DNA from: Candidatus Bathyarchaeota archaeon
GTDB lineage: Archaea; Thermoproteota; Bathyarchaeia; TCS64
DNA length: 64,000 nucleotides
Reading direction: 5' to 3'
Assembly (NCBI GenBank): GCA_016930055.1
Contig: JAFGHP010000004.1
Coordinates: 1,857 to 65,856, forward strand
Shown: in pieces, positions 17,050 to 63,133 of the stretch
Layout of the letters: every line of letters starts with the position of its first letter
How positions within the stretch are numbered: position 1 is the first letter of the stretch
Made by a program: the position numbers and the translations under genes
The notes under the pieces: model-generated
What the model was told of the DNA's origin: nothing
Seen by the model: only the letters and a program-made list of their open reading frames with translations
Database searches by the model: none

Positions 17050-17156
17050 GTGCCGGGGATGGGATTTGAACCCATGGTCTTTATCCGGATTGGGCGCTGG
17101 TGCCTAAATCCTCTGGATCATGAGTCCAGCGCATTAGCCAATCTATGCTACCCCGG
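17050..17156 (-). tRNA. tRNA-Met (anticodon CAT; elongator Met or Ile2-type) with a ~32-nt insertion between the anticodon stem and T-stem
   Basis: Hand fold. Acceptor GCCGGGG/CCCCGGC with discriminator A. D-arm GCAT-AGATTGGCTA-ATGC. Anticodon arm CTGGA-CTCATGA-TCCAG. T-arm ATGGG-TTCAAAT-CCCAT. 37 nt (17075..17111) sit where a 5-nt variable loop is expected. No encoded CCA. Confidence 0.8.
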
Positions 17157-17339
17157 CTCTTGCAGTCTCTACACCTTTCATAAATTTAAATGATGAGGCA
17201 AATATCACTATCAATTATAATTCTATTTAGTGTTTATTTACCTTAGCTTGAGATTGATTTTTTTGTATGGTTTCTTGGTTTTTTGTTAAAATATTTAAAT
17301 AGTTTAAAAGTAAATCTTGAATCGTTTGAGGTGTATTAA

Positions 17340-27548: not shown

Positions 27549-29744
<2,196 letters not shown>

Positions 29745-51181: not shown

Positions 51182-54100
51182 GTGAGGATAAGGGTAAAAG
51201 GCGCGAGAGAAAACAACCTCAAAAACATAGATGTCGAGTTTGGTGATGGTTTAACAGTCGTTACTGGTGTAAGTGGCAGCGGGAAGACCAGCTTGGTCTT
51301 CGATACCATTCATCACGAAGCTCAGAGAAGGATGTACGAAATCTTTACCTCTCGACGTTCAACTCCTATTGAACAACCCGCTAAAGTTGATAGCATCACA
51401 GGTATTGGACCAACTGTTGCTGTAGGTCAAAACTTGCTTAATAGGAACCCTAATAGTACTTTAGCAACAGCTAGTGGTTTGCATCCCTTCCTTAGGTTAT
51501 TATTTTCTAGATTCGGTACAAGAATCTGTGAAAGATGCTCTGAACCTCTAAATATTTTAACTGTTGATGAAATCGTCTCTGAAATTGCTAAAATAGAAGA
51601 TGATTGCTCTTTATTAGCTCCATTAATATTTAATTCAATTGGAAGCCATTCTGTATTACTAAGCTTACTTACCGAGAAATTTGGGTCTGAATCTCTCATT
51701 ATTGATGGAGAAAACTATAATGGTGAAAAACTTGATGCTCAGATTCTTCATAACATTGTTTTAAGATTAACATGTGTAAACAAAGAAACTAGTAGGAAGG
51801 AGATTAAAGAACAAATAGTAAAAGCAGAAGCTTTAGGATGTAATAATATAATAATTCAAGAAAAAGAAACGACATCAAGGTATAGCTCAACTAATATATG
51901 TCCTGTATGTGGTATGTGGTTTAAGCCAATTAATCCTCATGACTTCAATGAGAGATGTCCAAACTGTAATGGAATAGGATGTCCTCAATGTAAAAAAACG
52001 GGACTTAAACCAGAAGTTGTTAATGTTACATGGAAGAGGTATTCTTTCAAAACAATTCAAGATCTAGATGTAAATCAGGCATTACGACTATTTTATAATT
52101 CAACTCTACCAGAAGGTGCTGAGAGGCTTCTTAAAGAAATTGTAAAGCGTTTAGAGGCATTGAACCGGGTGGGTCTTGGATATATTCAGTTGAATAGATC
52201 TAGCCCAACATTATCAAGGGGCGAATCCCAGAGGGTTAGACTTGCAGTTTCTTTGAAAAGCGACCTCGAAGATATTCTTCATGTCTTAGATGAACCAACA
52301 ATTGGACAGCATCCTAGTGATGTATTAAGCTTAGTTTCTGCCTTTAGAGAGTTAAAGGGACCTGTAATTTACGTTGAACATGATAGGGTAGCTGCAGCAC
52401 TCGCTGACAATGTAGTTGATGTTGGACCAGGAGCAGGATCTAAGGGTGGAGAGATCGTGTTTTCAGGGAGTCCAGTTAAACTCTGGGAAGCTGATACTGT
52501 TTCTGGTCAATATTTTAGCTTACGGAAAAAACCAATACAGCCTAAAATGAAGCCTCTACCTTTGAAATATCTAACTATCAAAGGAGCAAACAAAAATAAT
52601 CTTAAAAATATTGATGTAAAAATTCCTTGGGAACGCTTAACAGTGGTAACTGGTGTTAGTGGAAGTGGTAAAAGCACTCTTATTGAGGATGTTTTAGTAA
52701 AATCTCTTTCCGATGGAAAACCTGTTGGTTGCCAAAGCATCGAAGATATTTTAGATCCGATACTTGTTGATCAGAGCCCGATAGGAAGGAACCCGCACTC
52801 AACTCCGGCTACTTATACAAAACTCAGCGAGTTACTTAGGAAATATTATGCTAAAAATACTGGACTCAGCACAAGCTGCTTTAGCTTTAACAGACCCGAA
52901 GGAGCTTGTCCTGAATGTGAGGGGATGGGAGCCATCGAAATTAAGATGCGTTACTTGCCTTCATGTTGGGTTACATGCACTTTATGTGAAGGTAGAAGAT
53001 TTAAACCGGAAATTGCTGAAAAAAAGCTTGAGTTTCATGATGTTCAACTTAGTATTGCTGATTTTTACGAGTTAACTGTAGAAGAAGCATACAAAGTACT
53101 ATCTGAAGCTAGAATTGAACATAAGCTGAAGAAGCAAATTCTAAACATACTCAAAGCCTTAAAAGACATTGGACTAGGATACTTGAGGTTAGGTCAACCA
53201 AGTCCCTCACTGTCTGGAGGAGAAGCTCAAAGAATTAAATTAGCAAAATATCTTGGACGAAGTAACTTAACCAATAAATTAATTCTGTTAGATGAACCTT
53301 CAACGGGGCTTCATCCTCAAGACATAACAAACCTTCTCAATGTGCTTGATAACCTTGTTGATAAGGGAGCCACAATTGTTGTAGTGGAGCATAACCTAGA
53401 CATAATCAGGTTTTCAGACTGGATAATAGATTTGGGTCCTGGTGCTGGGCCTTCAGGTGGAGAAGTATTATACAATGGTACAACGGATGAGTTTATCCAA
53501 AAAGCAAGATCATTGACAGCAAAAGCACTACGGGAAGAATCCAAGATTAAGCCAAAAGATGCCAGTCAAGAAGTATACAGTAAATTGGATAATATAGTTG
53601 TGAAAGGAGCCAAAGTTAACAACCTTAAAGACATTAATGTATCTTTTCCGAAAAATAAGATCACGGTAGTTACAGGTGTAAGTGGTTCAGGTAAAAGCAG
53701 TCTTGTTTCAGATACTTTGGAGGTTGAAGCGAAACGGAGATACCTCGAATCGCTATCAATGTATGAGAGGCAGGGAACTAAAGAGGGACCTGAAGCTCCT
53801 GTAGATGAAATTTCAGGATTGGGTGTAACTGTATCGATTACACCTGAAAGAAGGCTTTATAGTAGAAGAAGTACTGTTGGAACTGTTACTGAGATTGATC
53901 ATAATTTAGCAGTGCTCTTCTCCCTTCTGGGTAAAAAGCGATGCACAAACTGCGGAGAAGAGATGGTCAGAGACAAGGAATGGATCTGCCCATTATGTGG
54001 ATCAACTGCCTTAATCGCTGATTCGAATAAATTTGATCCCAAAAACTACTCCGCAGCTTGCACAAAATGTAATGGCGTAGGAACCCTTCAGAAGCCTAAC

Positions 54101-56023
54101 CCAAGTAAATTGATTATAAACCCTTCAAAACCCTTGTGCAGTGGAGCAATGTATAGTCCAGGATTCTTCCCACAAGGTTACCTATGTAAACCAGGGAATG
54201 GTGGATATGATGTTCTTCACGCATTCGCAGAGAAAAGAGGTTTTAGCCCTGAGGATACTCCTTGGAATCAGGTTCCTGAAGAGATTCAGAATATGTTTTA
54301 TTACGGAGATCCAGAGCCTATCGATGTAACTTTCAACAACTTAAAAGGAAGAATAAGTAATCGTACAGTCAAAATGCCTGGCTTCTATAGTGGTTATATT
54401 AGAGACTGGGATGTGGGAGGTACTTATACTGATATTGTGTCTTGCCCAGAATGCGGAGGTGCAAAACTACGTCCTGAATATTTAGAAGTTAAACTAACTG
54501 GATACAATATTTACCAACTTGAAAACCTTCCCCTTTCAGATCTAAGTAGAATAATAAATGAATTTGATGTCCCAAAAGGGCATATTGTTGAGACAAATTA
54601 TTCTACAATAAAAAACAGGTTGAGATTCTTAAATCAAGTTGGACTAAGTTACATAAATCTCAACAGAGTATCTGCAACACTTAGTGCAGGGGAAGCCCAG
54701 AGGATTAAACTTGCAGGACTATTAGGAAGTGGACTGACAAGTCTAACCATAATCCTAGATGAACCTTCGAGAGGTCTTCATCCGAGTGAAGTGAACGCTC
54801 TATTTGACGCTTTGAAGGAGCTATGTGATGAAGGAAATACTGTTATTATTGTTGAACACGATCCGGAAATAATACGAAAAGCAGATCACATCATTGAGTT
54901 GGGACCTGGACCAGGTGTAGCAGGCGGAAAAATTGTGGCTGAGGGTACTCCTGAAACTATAATTAAAGCAGGTACGGTAACGGGGAAATGGATTCAAAAA
55001 AACCTCATAAAAATATCACAAAAAAGGCGACAACCTAAAGGATGGATGAAAATAATAGGTGCTAAAGAGAACAACCTAAAAGACATTGAAACAAGAATAC
55101 CGCTAGGAGTATTAACTGGTATCTGTGGGGTATCTGGTAGTGGGAAAAGTACTTTAATAGTTGATACTTTGGGGAGAGCTCTTAATCCACAGAAACATAC
55201 TACAAGTGTAGCTAAAGAACCGTTAGAACCAGGAGCACATGACTCAATAATTGACCCCCCTAAAAATAATTTAGTTATTGATCAGACTCGTACTGGAATA
55301 AGTAATCCATCAAAATATCTTGGATTAGATAAGGAGTTGGCAAAGATTTACTCTGAAACAATCGAAGCTGTCTCCAGGGGAATAACTTTCAAACATCTTA
55401 TGGAACGGTGTGATGTATGTAGTGGATCAGGTACAGTTAGAATCGATATGGAATTCTTACCAGACATACATAGTGAATGTGAAGCATGTCGAGGAACTGG
55501 GTATAAACAAGAAGCATGGGATGTTAAACTCAACGATTTAAGCTTGCCAGAGTTAAACAGTTTAACCCTTACAGAAATTTATAATCTCTTCAAAGGGTAT
55601 CCTAGTTTAACCTCAAAGATTAAACCTGCATTGGATGTAGGTTTAGGATACCTTGTCTTAAACCAGCAATCATATACCCTTTCAGGAGGAGAAGCACAGC
55701 GTCTTAAAATAGCTGCAGAGTTGACAAAGAAGAAAGGGGATAATTGCTTATACATCCTTGATGAACCCAGCATCGGGCAGCATCTAGAAGACATAAAAAG
55801 GTTGAATGGAGTTCTGAATCAATTAGTAGATGAAGGTAATTCAGTGATTATTGTTGAGCATTGCCCCCAGATGCTAGTAAACTGCGATTGGTTACTGGAA
55901 CTTGGTCCAGTGGGTGGACCCGAAGGAGGTTACTTAATTGCAGAGGGAACACCAGAAACAGTCTCATGTAAAGACACACCTACTTCACCATATCTTAAAG
56001 TAATTTTGGAGGAATCAACATGA
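51182..56023 (+). CDS. UvrA-like ABC ATPase, tandemly duplicated (four nucleotide-binding modules, 1613 aa); GTG start
   Basis: Walker A GVSGSGK(T/S) at aa 29, 491, 832 and 1316. Four LS(R/G/A)GE(S/A)QR signatures. Four DEP(T/S) Walker B motifs. Each module is preceded by GA(R/N/K)xNNLK(N/D)I. Several CxxC zinc modules are present. Confidence 0.9.
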   Translation: MRIRVKGARENNLKNIDVEFGDGLTVVTGVSGSGKTSLVFDTIHHEAQRRMYEIFTSRRSTPIEQPAKVDSITGIGPTVAVGQNLLNRNPNSTLATASGLHPFLRLLFSRFGTRICERCSEPLNILTVDEIVSEIAKIEDDCSLLAPLIFNSIGSHSVLLSLLTEKFGSESLIIDGENYNGEKLDAQILHNIVLRLTCVNKETSRKEIKEQIVKAEALGCNNIIIQEKETTSRYSSTNICPVCGMWFKPINPHDFNERCPNCNGIGCPQCKKTGLKPEVVNVTWKRYSFKTIQDLDVNQALRLFYNSTLPEGAERLLKEIVKRLEALNRVGLGYIQLNRSSPTLSRGESQRVRLAVSLKSDLEDILHVLDEPTIGQHPSDVLSLVSAFRELKGPVIYVEHDRVAAALADNVVDVGPGAGSKGGEIVFSGSPVKLWEADTVSGQYFSLRKKPIQPKMKPLPLKYLTIKGANKNNLKNIDVKIPWERLTVVTGVSGSGKSTLIEDVLVKSLSDGKPVGCQSIEDILDPILVDQSPIGRNPHSTPATYTKLSELLRKYYAKNTGLSTSCFSFNRPEGACPECEGMGAIEIKMRYLPSCWVTCTLCEGRRFKPEIAEKKLEFHDVQLSIADFYELTVEEAYKVLSEARIEHKLKKQILNILKALKDIGLGYLRLGQPSPSLSGGEAQRIKLAKYLGRSNLTNKLILLDEPSTGLHPQDITNLLNVLDNLVDKGATIVVVEHNLDIIRFSDWIIDLGPGAGPSGGEVLYNGTTDEFIQKARSLTAKALREESKIKPKDASQEVYSKLDNIVVKGAKVNNLKDINVSFPKNKITVVTGVSGSGKSSLVSDTLEVEAKRRYLESLSMYERQGTKEGPEAPVDEISGLGVTVSITPERRLYSRRSTVGTVTEIDHNLAVLFSLLGKKRCTNCGEEMVRDKEWICPLCGSTALIADSNKFDPKNYSAACTKCNGVGTLQKPNPSKLIINPSKPLCSGAMYSPGFFPQGYLCKPGNGGYDVLHAFAEKRGFSPEDTPWNQVPEEIQNMFYYGDPEPIDVTFNNLKGRISNRTVKMPGFYSGYIRDWDVGGTYTDIVSCPECGGAKLRPEYLEVKLTGYNIYQLENLPLSDLSRIINEFDVPKGHIVETNYSTIKNRLRFLNQVGLSYINLNRVSATLSAGEAQRIKLAGLLGSGLTSLTIILDEPSRGLHPSEVNALFDALKELCDEGNTVIIVEHDPEIIRKADHIIELGPGPGVAGGKIVAEGTPETIIKAGTVTGKWIQKNLIKISQKRRQPKGWMKIIGAKENNLKDIETRIPLGVLTGICGVSGSGKSTLIVDTLGRALNPQKHTTSVAKEPLEPGAHDSIIDPPKNNLVIDQTRTGISNPSKYLGLDKELAKIYSETIEAVSRGITFKHLMERCDVCSGSGTVRIDMEFLPDIHSECEACRGTGYKQEAWDVKLNDLSLPELNSLTLTEIYNLFKGYPSLTSKIKPALDVGLGYLVLNQQSYTLSGGEAQRLKIAAELTKKKGDNCLYILDEPSIGQHLEDIKRLNGVLNQLVDEGNSVIIVEHCPQMLVNCDWLLELGPVGGPEGGYLIAEGTPETVSCKDTPTSPYLKVILEEST

Positions 56024-57039
56024 GCTGGGTACCTCTACTGTTAACTGATCACTCAACTTGCCTTAGGTACCTTGTACATAAAAACCTGTTAAATGATTCT
56101 GAAGCAGAAGAATTGAGAAATTTCCGTTTAAATGATCCCCTAATTAAAGATTTGACTATAAGGCAGCTGCCAGATGGATCGTGGGCACCAGCAAGTATTT
56201 ATGGTCATAGCCAGGGAAAAATCCAAGCAACCGCCCAAGCATTGACGCGGTTAGGTTATCTTGAGGTGCCATTTGGGCATGAATCAGTTAGGCGTGCAGC
56301 TGAATATCTTTTTAGTCAGCAGAAACCAGATGGTTCTTGGCCTCTGATTGAAAATAGCAACGATTCTGAAGATAAAGAGCATTACGATATAATGAGTTTA
56401 CAGACAAGCATACCTTTACGAGGTCTAGCTGAATCTGGATATTCAGAGGATCCTCGCAGTATGAGGGCTTATGAATGGTTACTTAATCAGCAGATGGAAG
56501 ATGGAGCATGGCCTACAGGCATTGCTAAGGGTGTTTATGGCTATGTAGCGGGATACCGGAGAATACCTCATAGTAGATGGGGATGTAGAAGCAACACAAC
56601 TGCAGCAGTAACCTGTCTAAGCCTTAATCAAAAACTAAGAAAAAGCACTGCAGCAAGAAGGGGACTAGATCTACTCTTAGGAAGAGAAACACGGGAAAGA
56701 ACCCCTCTTGGCTACGATATTGCTAGACTTGTTGGTTACGAACCCTCAACAGGCTTCATTACATACTATGCACGATTCGATAATGCTCACATTCTCAAAC
56801 TTTGTAGCAGACTAGAAGCAGGATTACATGATCCTAGAGTAAAAAATTTAGTGGAATACACGATTCAGGAGCAGGGAAGTTTTGGATTATGGGAATATTT
56901 ACCTAATCCTCAAGCAACAAAATGGGTTACTTATGACATTCTTTATAATTTGTCTCAAATAATGCCTACATCTGACTGGGAAACCTTAGAGCCACAAACC
57001 CCCTTCCAACCATACCCCAAGAAACGGAAGAGGTATTAG
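56020..57039 (+). CDS. Prenyltransferase/squalene-cyclase-repeat (QW-motif) alpha/alpha-toroid protein
   Basis: RAAEYLFSQQKPDGSW and RAYEWLLNQQMEDGAW fit the QW motif [KR][GA]xx[FYW][LIV]xxxQx(2-5)GxW. Two more degenerate copies are present. The ATG overlaps the upstream TGA as ATGA. GGAGGA lies 6-11 nt upstream. Confidence 0.7.
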   Translation: MSWVPLLLTDHSTCLRYLVHKNLLNDSEAEELRNFRLNDPLIKDLTIRQLPDGSWAPASIYGHSQGKIQATAQALTRLGYLEVPFGHESVRRAAEYLFSQQKPDGSWPLIENSNDSEDKEHYDIMSLQTSIPLRGLAESGYSEDPRSMRAYEWLLNQQMEDGAWPTGIAKGVYGYVAGYRRIPHSRWGCRSNTTAAVTCLSLNQKLRKSTAARRGLDLLLGRETRERTPLGYDIARLVGYEPSTGFITYYARFDNAHILKLCSRLEAGLHDPRVKNLVEYTIQEQGSFGLWEYLPNPQATKWVTYDILYNLSQIMPTSDWETLEPQTPFQPYPKKRKRY

Positions 57040-62317: not shown

Positions 62318-63133
62318 ATGGAGCTTCCTGAGATCTATCTTCTAAGCAGAGACATGTATAAGGAGCTTAAGGGGAAGACTGTGAATGATGTGGAGGTTAA
62401 GAACGTAAAATGCCTTAACCTTCCCTTTGAAGAGTTCAGAAGCATAATTGTTGGTAAAAAATTCCTTGGTGCTAAACCTAAAGGTAAGTGGGTTTCTCTC
62501 GAAATAGAAGACGAATATACTTTGTTATATAATACTGGTATGGGTGCTAATACAATCTATTATCAGAAAGATGATCAACCCCAAGAGACTTGGCACATAA
62601 AATTCAGGTTCGAAGATGGTTCAGGTTTCACTTCGAGGGTTTGGTGGTTCTGCTATCTTCACCTACTAAAAAACAGTGAATTAGCCAGTCATAAGATGAC
62701 AGCTAAGCTGGGTCCAACTCCCTTAGATAGCGACTTTAGTGAAGATTATCTAAATGGCTTATTTATTGCGAAGAGGAGCTCAGTTAAGAACATTTTAATG
62801 GATCAGAGTAAAGTTGCTGGAATAGGAAATGTGTACATTCATGACCCATTATTCTTAGCTAATGTTCATCCACTTAGACAGGCAAACACAATTACTAGGG
62901 ATGAACTTACGAAGCTTTATGCTAGTATCAAGACAGTAATCAATGAAAGCATCTCTTGTGGTGGATTAGCTTATGAAGTTAATTTTTATGGGGTTAAAGG
63001 AGATTATGGCAAGAATCGTTATAGAGTGGCGTATAAGGAAGGAGAAGCCTGCCCAATCTGTGGAGAAACAATACAGAAAATTAAGACTGGTTCAACAAGC
63101 AGCTACATCTGTCCTAAATGTCAGCCACTTTGA
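62318..63133 (+). CDS. Fpg/Nei-family DNA glycosylase homolog (H2TH plus C-terminal zinc finger), lacking the N-terminal Pro
   Basis: MELPEI (canonical is MPELPEV), PKGKWVSL (compare RRGKYL), the H2TH region LMDQSKVAGIGNVYIHDPLF and CPICG...CPKCQ. Confidence 0.8.
   Translation: MELPEIYLLSRDMYKELKGKTVNDVEVKNVKCLNLPFEEFRSIIVGKKFLGAKPKGKWVSLEIEDEYTLLYNTGMGANTIYYQKDDQPQETWHIKFRFEDGSGFTSRVWWFCYLHLLKNSELASHKMTAKLGPTPLDSDFSEDYLNGLFIAKRSSVKNILMDQSKVAGIGNVYIHDPLFLANVHPLRQANTITRDELTKLYASIKTVINESISCGGLAYEVNFYGVKGDYGKNRYRVAYKEGEACPICGETIQKIKTGSTSSYICPKCQPL

Follow-up and report, generated by a model that had tools for sequence, protein, structure and literature searches.

The stretch of contig JAFGHP010000004.1 analysed here (64,000 nucleotides, the window) encodes a double UvrA, a single open reading frame (ORF; 51182..56023, + strand, GTG start) of 1613 amino acids (aa) with four ABC ATPase modules. 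It is followed directly by the gene of an alpha/alpha-toroid protein of 339 aa (56020..57039, + strand), recognised from the ORF list, Pfam and an AlphaFold 2 (AF2) model. Fusion of two UvrA units, complementary domain loss between them and an obligate toroid partner together define what, on the sequence evidence, is a distinct, widespread and uncharacterised class of UvrA. We lean, a little beyond an even balance, towards reading the protein as a single-chain asymmetric UvrA pseudo-dimer that would work with its toroid partner as a UvrB-independent pair for the surveillance of DNA lesions or adducts. The two genes probably mark an unstudied DNA-surveillance system of archaea and bacteria.

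A motif scan of the double UvrA located the four ATPase sites. Walker A motifs (GVSGSGK[TS]) are found at aa 29, 491, 832 and 1316, LSxGExQR signatures at aa 344, 677, 1167 and 1500, and the Walker B DEP[TS] at aa 370, 704, 1193 and 1527. The UvrA-type strand GAxxNNLK[ND]I lies at aa 7, 468, 809 and 1293, and the H-loop histidine is present in 4/4 modules. An earlier note on this DNA had described a 1613-aa ORF with four full ABC modules, and all the motif positions that it listed were recovered exactly. Domain mapping with hidden Markov models (HMMs) showed that both halves match UvrA models and that the four nucleotide-binding domains (NBDs) are intact. Half 1 and half 2 scored 677 and 651 bits respectively against the UvrA equivalog HMM TIGR00630, and 671 and 664 bits against NF001503. 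Solved UvrA structures were matched by both halves (E values of ~1e-154 for half 1 and ~1e-165 for half 2).

The two halves share 37% identity (305 bits), and both score higher against Thermotoga maritima UvrA (519 bits for half 1 and 553 bits for half 2) than against one another. These alignments indicate that the halves are an old, diverged pair. With just 37% identity between the halves, an assembly duplication is therefore ruled out, as the earlier note had argued from their divergence. A frameshift at the half junction is ruled out as well: 119 protein clusters, independent of one another, and many separate assemblies contain the same unbroken ORF with the same layout.

Homologues were searched for in a collection of 5.8 billion proteins; the family was counted as non-redundant full-length relatives, 119 of which were aligned. 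There are at least 119 full-length relatives (1589-1737 aa), sharing 55-63% identity with the window protein, and the source names of relatives from the protein search include Bathyarchaeota, Aminicenantes, Chloroflexi and Anaerolineae. Genome loci with relatives at 50-56% identity belong to Promethearchaeota (Asgard), an uncultured archaeon and Chloroflexia. The picture of a one-off archaeal curiosity was not borne out, the protein being part of a large family in bacteria and archaea whose members are already annotated as 'excinuclease ABC subunit A'. In the 119-member alignment the catalytic residues of the four sites (Walker A Lys, signature, Walker B Asp-Glu and H-loop His) are 97-100% conserved, and so are the zinc cysteines. 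The pattern of domain loss is also fixed (108-132 aa in the UvrB-binding domain (UBD) insert, 6 aa in the gap of zinc module 2 of half 1, and 124-130 aa in the insertion domain), and the segment within zinc module 1 of half 2 measures 13 aa in most family members. The conservation of the sites and the fixed domain-loss pattern across the 119 members argue that the continuous ORF is real and that all four ATPase sites are under purifying selection.

Several family members depart from the common layout. A subgroup of longer proteins (P0043, P0047, P0049, P0051, P0057, P0060 and P0062; 1684-1737 aa) has 18-120 extra residues at position ~1129 of the window protein, after the half-2 insertion domain and before Signature-I; in this subgroup the toroid gene remains next to the double uvrA, with a 4-nt overlap (locus L014). 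In a Chloroflexia metagenome-assembled genome (MAG; L011 10001-14911) the double uvrA is frameshifted into three ORFs (990, 219 and 456 aa) and the toroid gene is intact; a pseudogene or an error of the long-read assembly would explain this. Two loci, from the 'uncultured archaeon' (L007 9161-11665) and from Promethearchaeota (L009 4103-6670), carry a single UvrA (834 and 855 aa) directly upstream of the double UvrA. This additional UvrA has class II architecture, without a UBD and with an insertion domain, and these loci encode three UvrA units in a row, then the toroid.

The domains that the two halves have lost are complementary. Twelve CxxC motifs make up three zinc modules in each half. 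Half 1 (aa 1-785; 51182..53536, + strand, as are all the features of the double UvrA given below) contains NBD-I, NBD-II and a domain of the UvrB-binding type, and has no insertion domain. Its CxxC pairs are C116/C240 in zinc module 1, which enclose an insert of ~120 aa, C259/C267 in zinc module 2, with 6 residues between them, and C576/C599 in zinc module 3. The insert in zinc module 1 (C116..C243; 51527..51910) aligns with the UBD of class I UvrA, and zinc module 2 (C259..C270; 51956..51991) is a stub from which the insertion domain has been deleted. When half 1 was aligned with T. maritima UvrA (3pih), residues 3-267 matched 4-284 and residues 267-784 matched 384-913, so that an insertion domain of ~100 aa is absent. 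Half 2 (aa 804-1613; 53591..56020) is of class II type: the UvrB-binding domain is missing and the insertion domain is present. Its zinc module 1 (C921..C939; 53942..53998) is a stub in which a 13-residue segment lies between the pairs C921/C936 and the UvrB-binding domain is deleted. Zinc module 2 (pairs C960/C1088) encloses a domain of ~125 aa, and zinc module 3 is formed by C1410/C1433. The insertion domain of half 2 (C960..C1091; 54059..54454) is rich in aromatic residues, Gly and Pro, is highly conserved and matches Pfam UvrA_DNA-bind at aa 976-1068. Half 2 is collinear end-to-end with DrUvrA2 (2vf7) and Ecm16 (7sh1), yet it scores higher against class I UvrA. The asymmetry proposed in the earlier note, with a domain at the UBD position and a short insertion-domain region in half 1 and the reverse in half 2, was thus upheld by the 3pih, 2vf7 and 7sh1 alignments, but two of its lengths needed correction: the half-1 insert measures ~120 aa instead of ~110 aa, and the insert of ~150 aa placed before the CPEC finger of half 2 is a normal UvrA insertion domain of ~125 aa.

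The UBD-like domain of half 1 has diverged strongly. Its match to Pfam UvrA_inter covers nearly the full length of the model but reaches 23 bits in the window protein, and 17-27 bits in eight family members, compared to 136 bits in the E. coli UvrA control. The match is nevertheless present in every family member, in most of them over nearly the whole model. Mean column identity in this domain (0.52) is the lowest of the folded regions, whereas in the half-2 insertion domain (0.74) it is the same as in the ATPase cores. The two halves are joined by a variable, hydrophilic linker (aa 786-803; 53537..53590); the length of the segment 776-806 varies within the family (28-42 aa), and mean column identity in the linker is 0.32. 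An AF2 model of aa 1-1200 had a predicted local distance difference test (pLDDT) score of 84.5 and a predicted template modelling (pTM) score of 0.74, with pLDDT values of 85-91 in the UBD-like domain, 81-92 in the insertion domain and ~60 in the inter-half linker. Its best structural match is the UvrA of a UvrA-UvrB complex.

The partner gene, overlooked in the earlier note, overlaps the end of the double uvrA. The uvrA stop codon and the partner start codon share the sequence ATGA (4 nt; 56020..56023, + strand), an arrangement of translational coupling. This 4-nt overlap recurs in 8/8 complete intact genome loci, as well as in L013 and L014. The partner lies directly downstream of the double UvrA in 12/12 loci retrieved from UvrA; adjacency was seen in 7/7 GTDB genome loci, in an Aminicenantes MAG and in a 1737-aa variant, and it is kept in a 62%-identical homolog of another genome in which the remaining neighbours differ. 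In the reverse test, 80 metagenome loci were retrieved from the partner, 8 of which were too short to test. The double UvrA was upstream of the partner in 72/72 of the testable loci: a full-length double UvrA was directly upstream in 30/30 of those with at least 4.9 kb of upstream sequence, and in the further 42 loci the UvrA C-terminus runs into the contig edge. The obligate pairing of the two genes spans archaea and bacteria, and the toroid gene is the best single pointer to what the double UvrA does.

Clustering of all the ORFs of 91 loci revealed no third recurrent gene (nuclease, helicase, UvrB/C or transporter). The annotation of the window bore out the statement that it contains neither uvrB nor uvrC, and neither gene was found in the 10-kb flanks of related loci. 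A Rosetta-stone search gave no convincing UvrA-toroid fusion. P0365 is a wrong-frame gene call, and P0242 (378 aa, metagenome), the sole fusion-like case, joins half-2 insertion-domain sequence to toroid residue ~67; it looks chimeric and is probably a chimeric or deleted assembly.

The partner is a single-domain protein with QW-type repeats, through which part of the Pfam model SQHop_cyclase_C matches it (E value of 4e-11). The AF2 prediction is one confident alpha/alpha-toroid (pLDDT 84, pTM 0.85), with low confidence in an invariant loop (VAGYRRxxHSRWGCRSNTT) and in a conserved basic C-terminal tail (EPRTPFxxYxxxxKR[FY]). In Foldseek comparisons the template modelling score was just ~0.45-0.5 to class II terpene cyclases and to complement thioester domains, and no DxDD, DDxxD or CGEQ motif is present in the partner sequence. 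The source annotations label the partner 'hypothetical' or 'terpene cyclase/mutase family'. A function as terpene cyclase, prenyltransferase or thioester protein was rejected, given the absence of the catalytic motifs and the weak structural similarity. Partner sequences form a compact family with high conservation (68-69% mean column identity). In an Anaerolineae MAG a second toroid paralog (308 aa; L006 14400-15326) lies just 3' of the first.

The canonical UvrA2B2 complex offers a framework for these observations. In it, each UvrB touches the UBD of one protomer and the Signature-II domain of the other, and a rigid half is composed of one UvrB and one protomer minus its own UBD, which the other protomer supplies (PMC11985968). 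A given side of UvrA2B2 holds the UBD of one protomer and the insertion domain and Signature-II domain of the other (PMC11985968). Two anciently diverged UvrA units on a flexible tether of ~20-30 residues would constitute a single-chain asymmetric 'heterodimer' with four competent ATPase sites. If the halves pack like a UvrA dimer, the UBD of half 1 and the insertion domain and Signature-II domain of half 2 would share one side, and the pseudo-dimer would keep one complete functional side, the other being stripped. The complementary domain loss is what such a one-sided pseudo-dimer would predict, and it seems hard to explain otherwise. The translationally coupled operon would co-produce the fused UvrA and the toroid of ~340 aa. 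The fused UvrA would then use ATP to scan DNA and to clamp it at distortions or adducts, as UvrA and class II UvrAs do, and would present the site to one toroid, or be regulated by it, where UvrA normally has two UvrB molecules. The mild acidity of the UBD-like domain and the basic C-terminal tail of the partner would fit docking of the toroid on this domain; the insertion domain may in turn be the real partner contact, a sensor or the key specialised element.

We favour a UvrB-independent pair because a covalent dimer cannot dissociate, because the UBD-like domain is strongly diverged and because the toroid is obligate. Several points weigh against this choice. No other folded part of the protein is as poorly conserved as the UBD-like domain, which makes it a poor fit for the dock of a highly conserved partner, and this domain is kept at full length, so that UvrB binding is possible. 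Linkage of uvrB and uvrC to uvrA is in any case uncommon. In the toroid no catalytic motif can be recognised, we know of no DNA-binding precedent for it, and a convincing fusion of UvrA and toroid was looked for and none was found. Moreover, the physical complex and the pseudo-dimer geometry are predictions, the model of aa 1-1200 being judged by pLDDT and pTM alone. More tentatively, and with rather less confidence than we place in the surveillance pair itself, it is possible that the toroid replaced UvrB as the hand-off partner. The two genes would then form a hitherto unrecognised two-component pathway for the recognition and processing of lesions or adducts, common to archaea of sediments (Bathyarchaeia, Asgard) and to bacteria (Chloroflexota, Aminicenantes), in which the invariant Tyr/Arg/His/Cys loop acts on the lesion or on a DNA-bound ligand.

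The strongest competitor is that the double UvrA is an ordinary UvrA of nucleotide excision repair (NER) in fused form, as we take to be the case in Chlamydiae; it would use UvrB and UvrC from other loci, and the toroid would be accessory or an unrelated co-transcribed gene. We regard this as unlikely. The whole protein, with its two units summed, does exceed the UvrA equivalog cut-offs (1329.9 vs. 729.8 bits for TIGR00630 and 1345.5 vs. 1147 bits for NF001503), but either half alone falls below both of them. Half 1 keeps a full-length domain of the UBD type, and one UBD could suffice, as canonical NER includes a UvrA2UvrB1 intermediate (PMC11985968); this domain, however, scores at a fraction of a real UBD, and destabilisation of the UvrA dimer is thought to accompany and drive the hand-off to UvrB (PMC11985968), for which a covalent dimer could not come apart. 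Naming lends this explanation some support, in that relatives are called excinuclease ABC subunit A by the Joint Genome Institute (JGI) and double-length UvrA is already an accepted annotation class (NF001885). By contrast, an additional UvrA paralog adjoins the double UvrA in two archaeal loci, and the pairing with the toroid in 72/72 and 12/12 loci from two domains of life points to a dedicated function.

Less probable again is a role in resistance or tolerance like that of DrrC and Ecm16, raised as drug displacement in the earlier note: the protein would remove intercalators or other ligands from DNA at the expense of ATP, and the toroid cavity would capture or modify the released molecule. 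The class II architecture of half 2 and its end-to-end correspondence to DrUvrA2 and Ecm16 speak for it; Ecm16 is a class II UvrA that works without UvrB, UvrC or UvrD and requires its own ATPase activity (PMC9328131). Both halves nonetheless score higher against class I than against class II UvrAs. Hydrophobic ligands are bound by alpha/alpha toroids of the terpene-cyclase, prenyltransferase and thioester-domain types, but the present toroid lacks known catalytic motifs. Genes of the major facilitator superfamily (MFS) lie within a few kb in the window, in L002 and in L014, but they are non-orthologous between loci and MFS transporters are common; neither a biosynthetic cluster nor a conserved transporter accompanies the operon, and the two genes alone recur in the 91 loci.

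Finally, a two-gene anti-phage or anti-mobile-element cassette, with a UvrA-like ATPase that senses foreign or modified DNA, is very improbable: the NBDs match the PADLOC models mad3 (397 bits) and mad8 (177 bits), the patchy distribution between the domains of life and the variable neighbourhoods suggest horizontal transfer, and the GC content of the operon is slightly above the window mean, but there is neither a nuclease nor another effector domain, the partner has no PADLOC match, further MADS genes are absent, the surrounding genes are of metabolic or housekeeping kinds and do not form defence islands, and conservation (50-63% identity to the window protein in archaea and bacteria) is unusually high for a defence gene.

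The host is probably an archaeon, as the earlier note had it, and Bathyarchaeia-like: the window encodes a tRNA with a probable intron and an ATPase of the Cdc48 type, and the nearest homologs carry the label Bathyarchaeota. The tRNA(CAU) (17051-17157, - strand; Rfam 59.5 bits, missed by ARAGORN) has an insertion of ~33 nt in the variable-loop region that looks like a non-canonical intron, an archaeal hallmark. The Cdc48/VCP-type double-AAA ATPase (27549-29732, - strand), with CDC48_N and CDC48_2 domains, is a marker of archaeal type. GC content is 0.386 in uvrA and 0.417 in the partner gene, compared to a window mean of 0.331, and GC content at third codon positions is 0.27-0.30 in the operon, slightly above that of other genes (0.18-0.35). 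Such a composition would fit an old, ameliorated transfer or an amino-acid constraint. Downstream of the operon, at a distance of ~6 kb, the window has a gene for a DNA glycosylase of the Fpg/Nei type (~62318-63133, + strand), which is not conserved in related loci.

The UvrA classes described in the literature searched are class I and class II (IIa and IIb) alone, and this search found no description of a fused UvrA class or of a UvrA-toroid (terpene-cyclase-like) pair. Debates on UvrA, a textbook sensor of DNA damage, concern the division of labour among the four ATP sites, the role of each insertion domain and UBD, and the need for dimer dissociation at hand-off. In an asymmetric single chain both sides and all four sites can be mutated separately, which is impossible in a homodimer. 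The strict co-inheritance of the toroid suggests that UvrA-type sensing may here be coupled to some effector that is not UvrB. If the proposed pair is real, uncultured lineages that are abundant, Asgard archaea among them, would possess a new branch of DNA surveillance in prokaryotes, and the finding would correct the automatic annotations 'excinuclease ABC subunit A' and 'terpene cyclase/mutase family protein'.

Among known systems, the double-length UvrA model NF001885/PRK00635 (1809 positions), which we take to be the Chlamydiae UvrA, likewise describes a single chain of about twice the UvrA length with UvrA-type modules. The double UvrA scores 942.8 bits against it, compared to a cut-off of 3054 bits, and the best alignments of its two halves both fall in one part of the model, the first half (positions ~315-921); the two are therefore not collinear orthologs. 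Score and non-collinearity rule out membership in the PRK00635 group, and the two kinds of fusion probably arose independently, as judged from these alignments. UvrA-like ATPases also serve in a described defence system, as the mad3 and mad8 components of MADS in PADLOC. MADS is a multi-gene cassette (mad1-mad8) that includes methyltransferase and nuclease components, whereas the double UvrA resembles it at the level of the NBDs alone, and no other mad genes or conserved neighbours were found among the 91 clustered loci. The partner shares the toroid fold and QW-type repeats with class II terpene cyclases (squalene-hopene cyclase) and with complement-type thioester domains. Unlike the former, it is one domain of 339 aa rather than a two-domain (beta-gamma) toroid and lacks DxDD; the CGEQ thioester motif of the latter is missing too, and the invariant HSRWGCRSNTT loop and the basic C-terminal tail set it apart from its fold relatives.

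With class I UvrA (TIGR00630/PRK00349; 2r6f, 3pih, 3uwx and 9gxk), each half of the double UvrA has in common the NBD-I/NBD-II tandem, the three zinc modules and the GAxxNNLK strand, and class I structures are the best-scoring ones for both halves. A UvrA2 dimer contains four ATP sites in total, as does the double UvrA chain. Class I UvrA, however, is a homodimer of ~940-aa chains that loads UvrB for incision by UvrC and has an insertion domain in every protomer, whereas the double UvrA is one chain of 1613 aa in which half 1 has no insertion domain; one strongly diverged UBD-type domain and one insertion domain are present, on different halves, and a toroid partner gene is obligate. With class II UvrA (DrUvrA2 2vf7, Ecm16 7sh1 and DrrC), half 2 shares the absence of the UBD, the presence of the insertion domain and collinearity; this architecture belongs to half 2 alone and so does not describe the whole protein. 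The double UvrA differs from class II in the inverse architecture of half 1, in the fused chain, in a sequence nearer to class I, in a location outside antibiotic biosynthetic clusters and in a conserved toroid partner, none being known for class II. By analogy with class II proteins, nonetheless, the double UvrA may act without UvrB.

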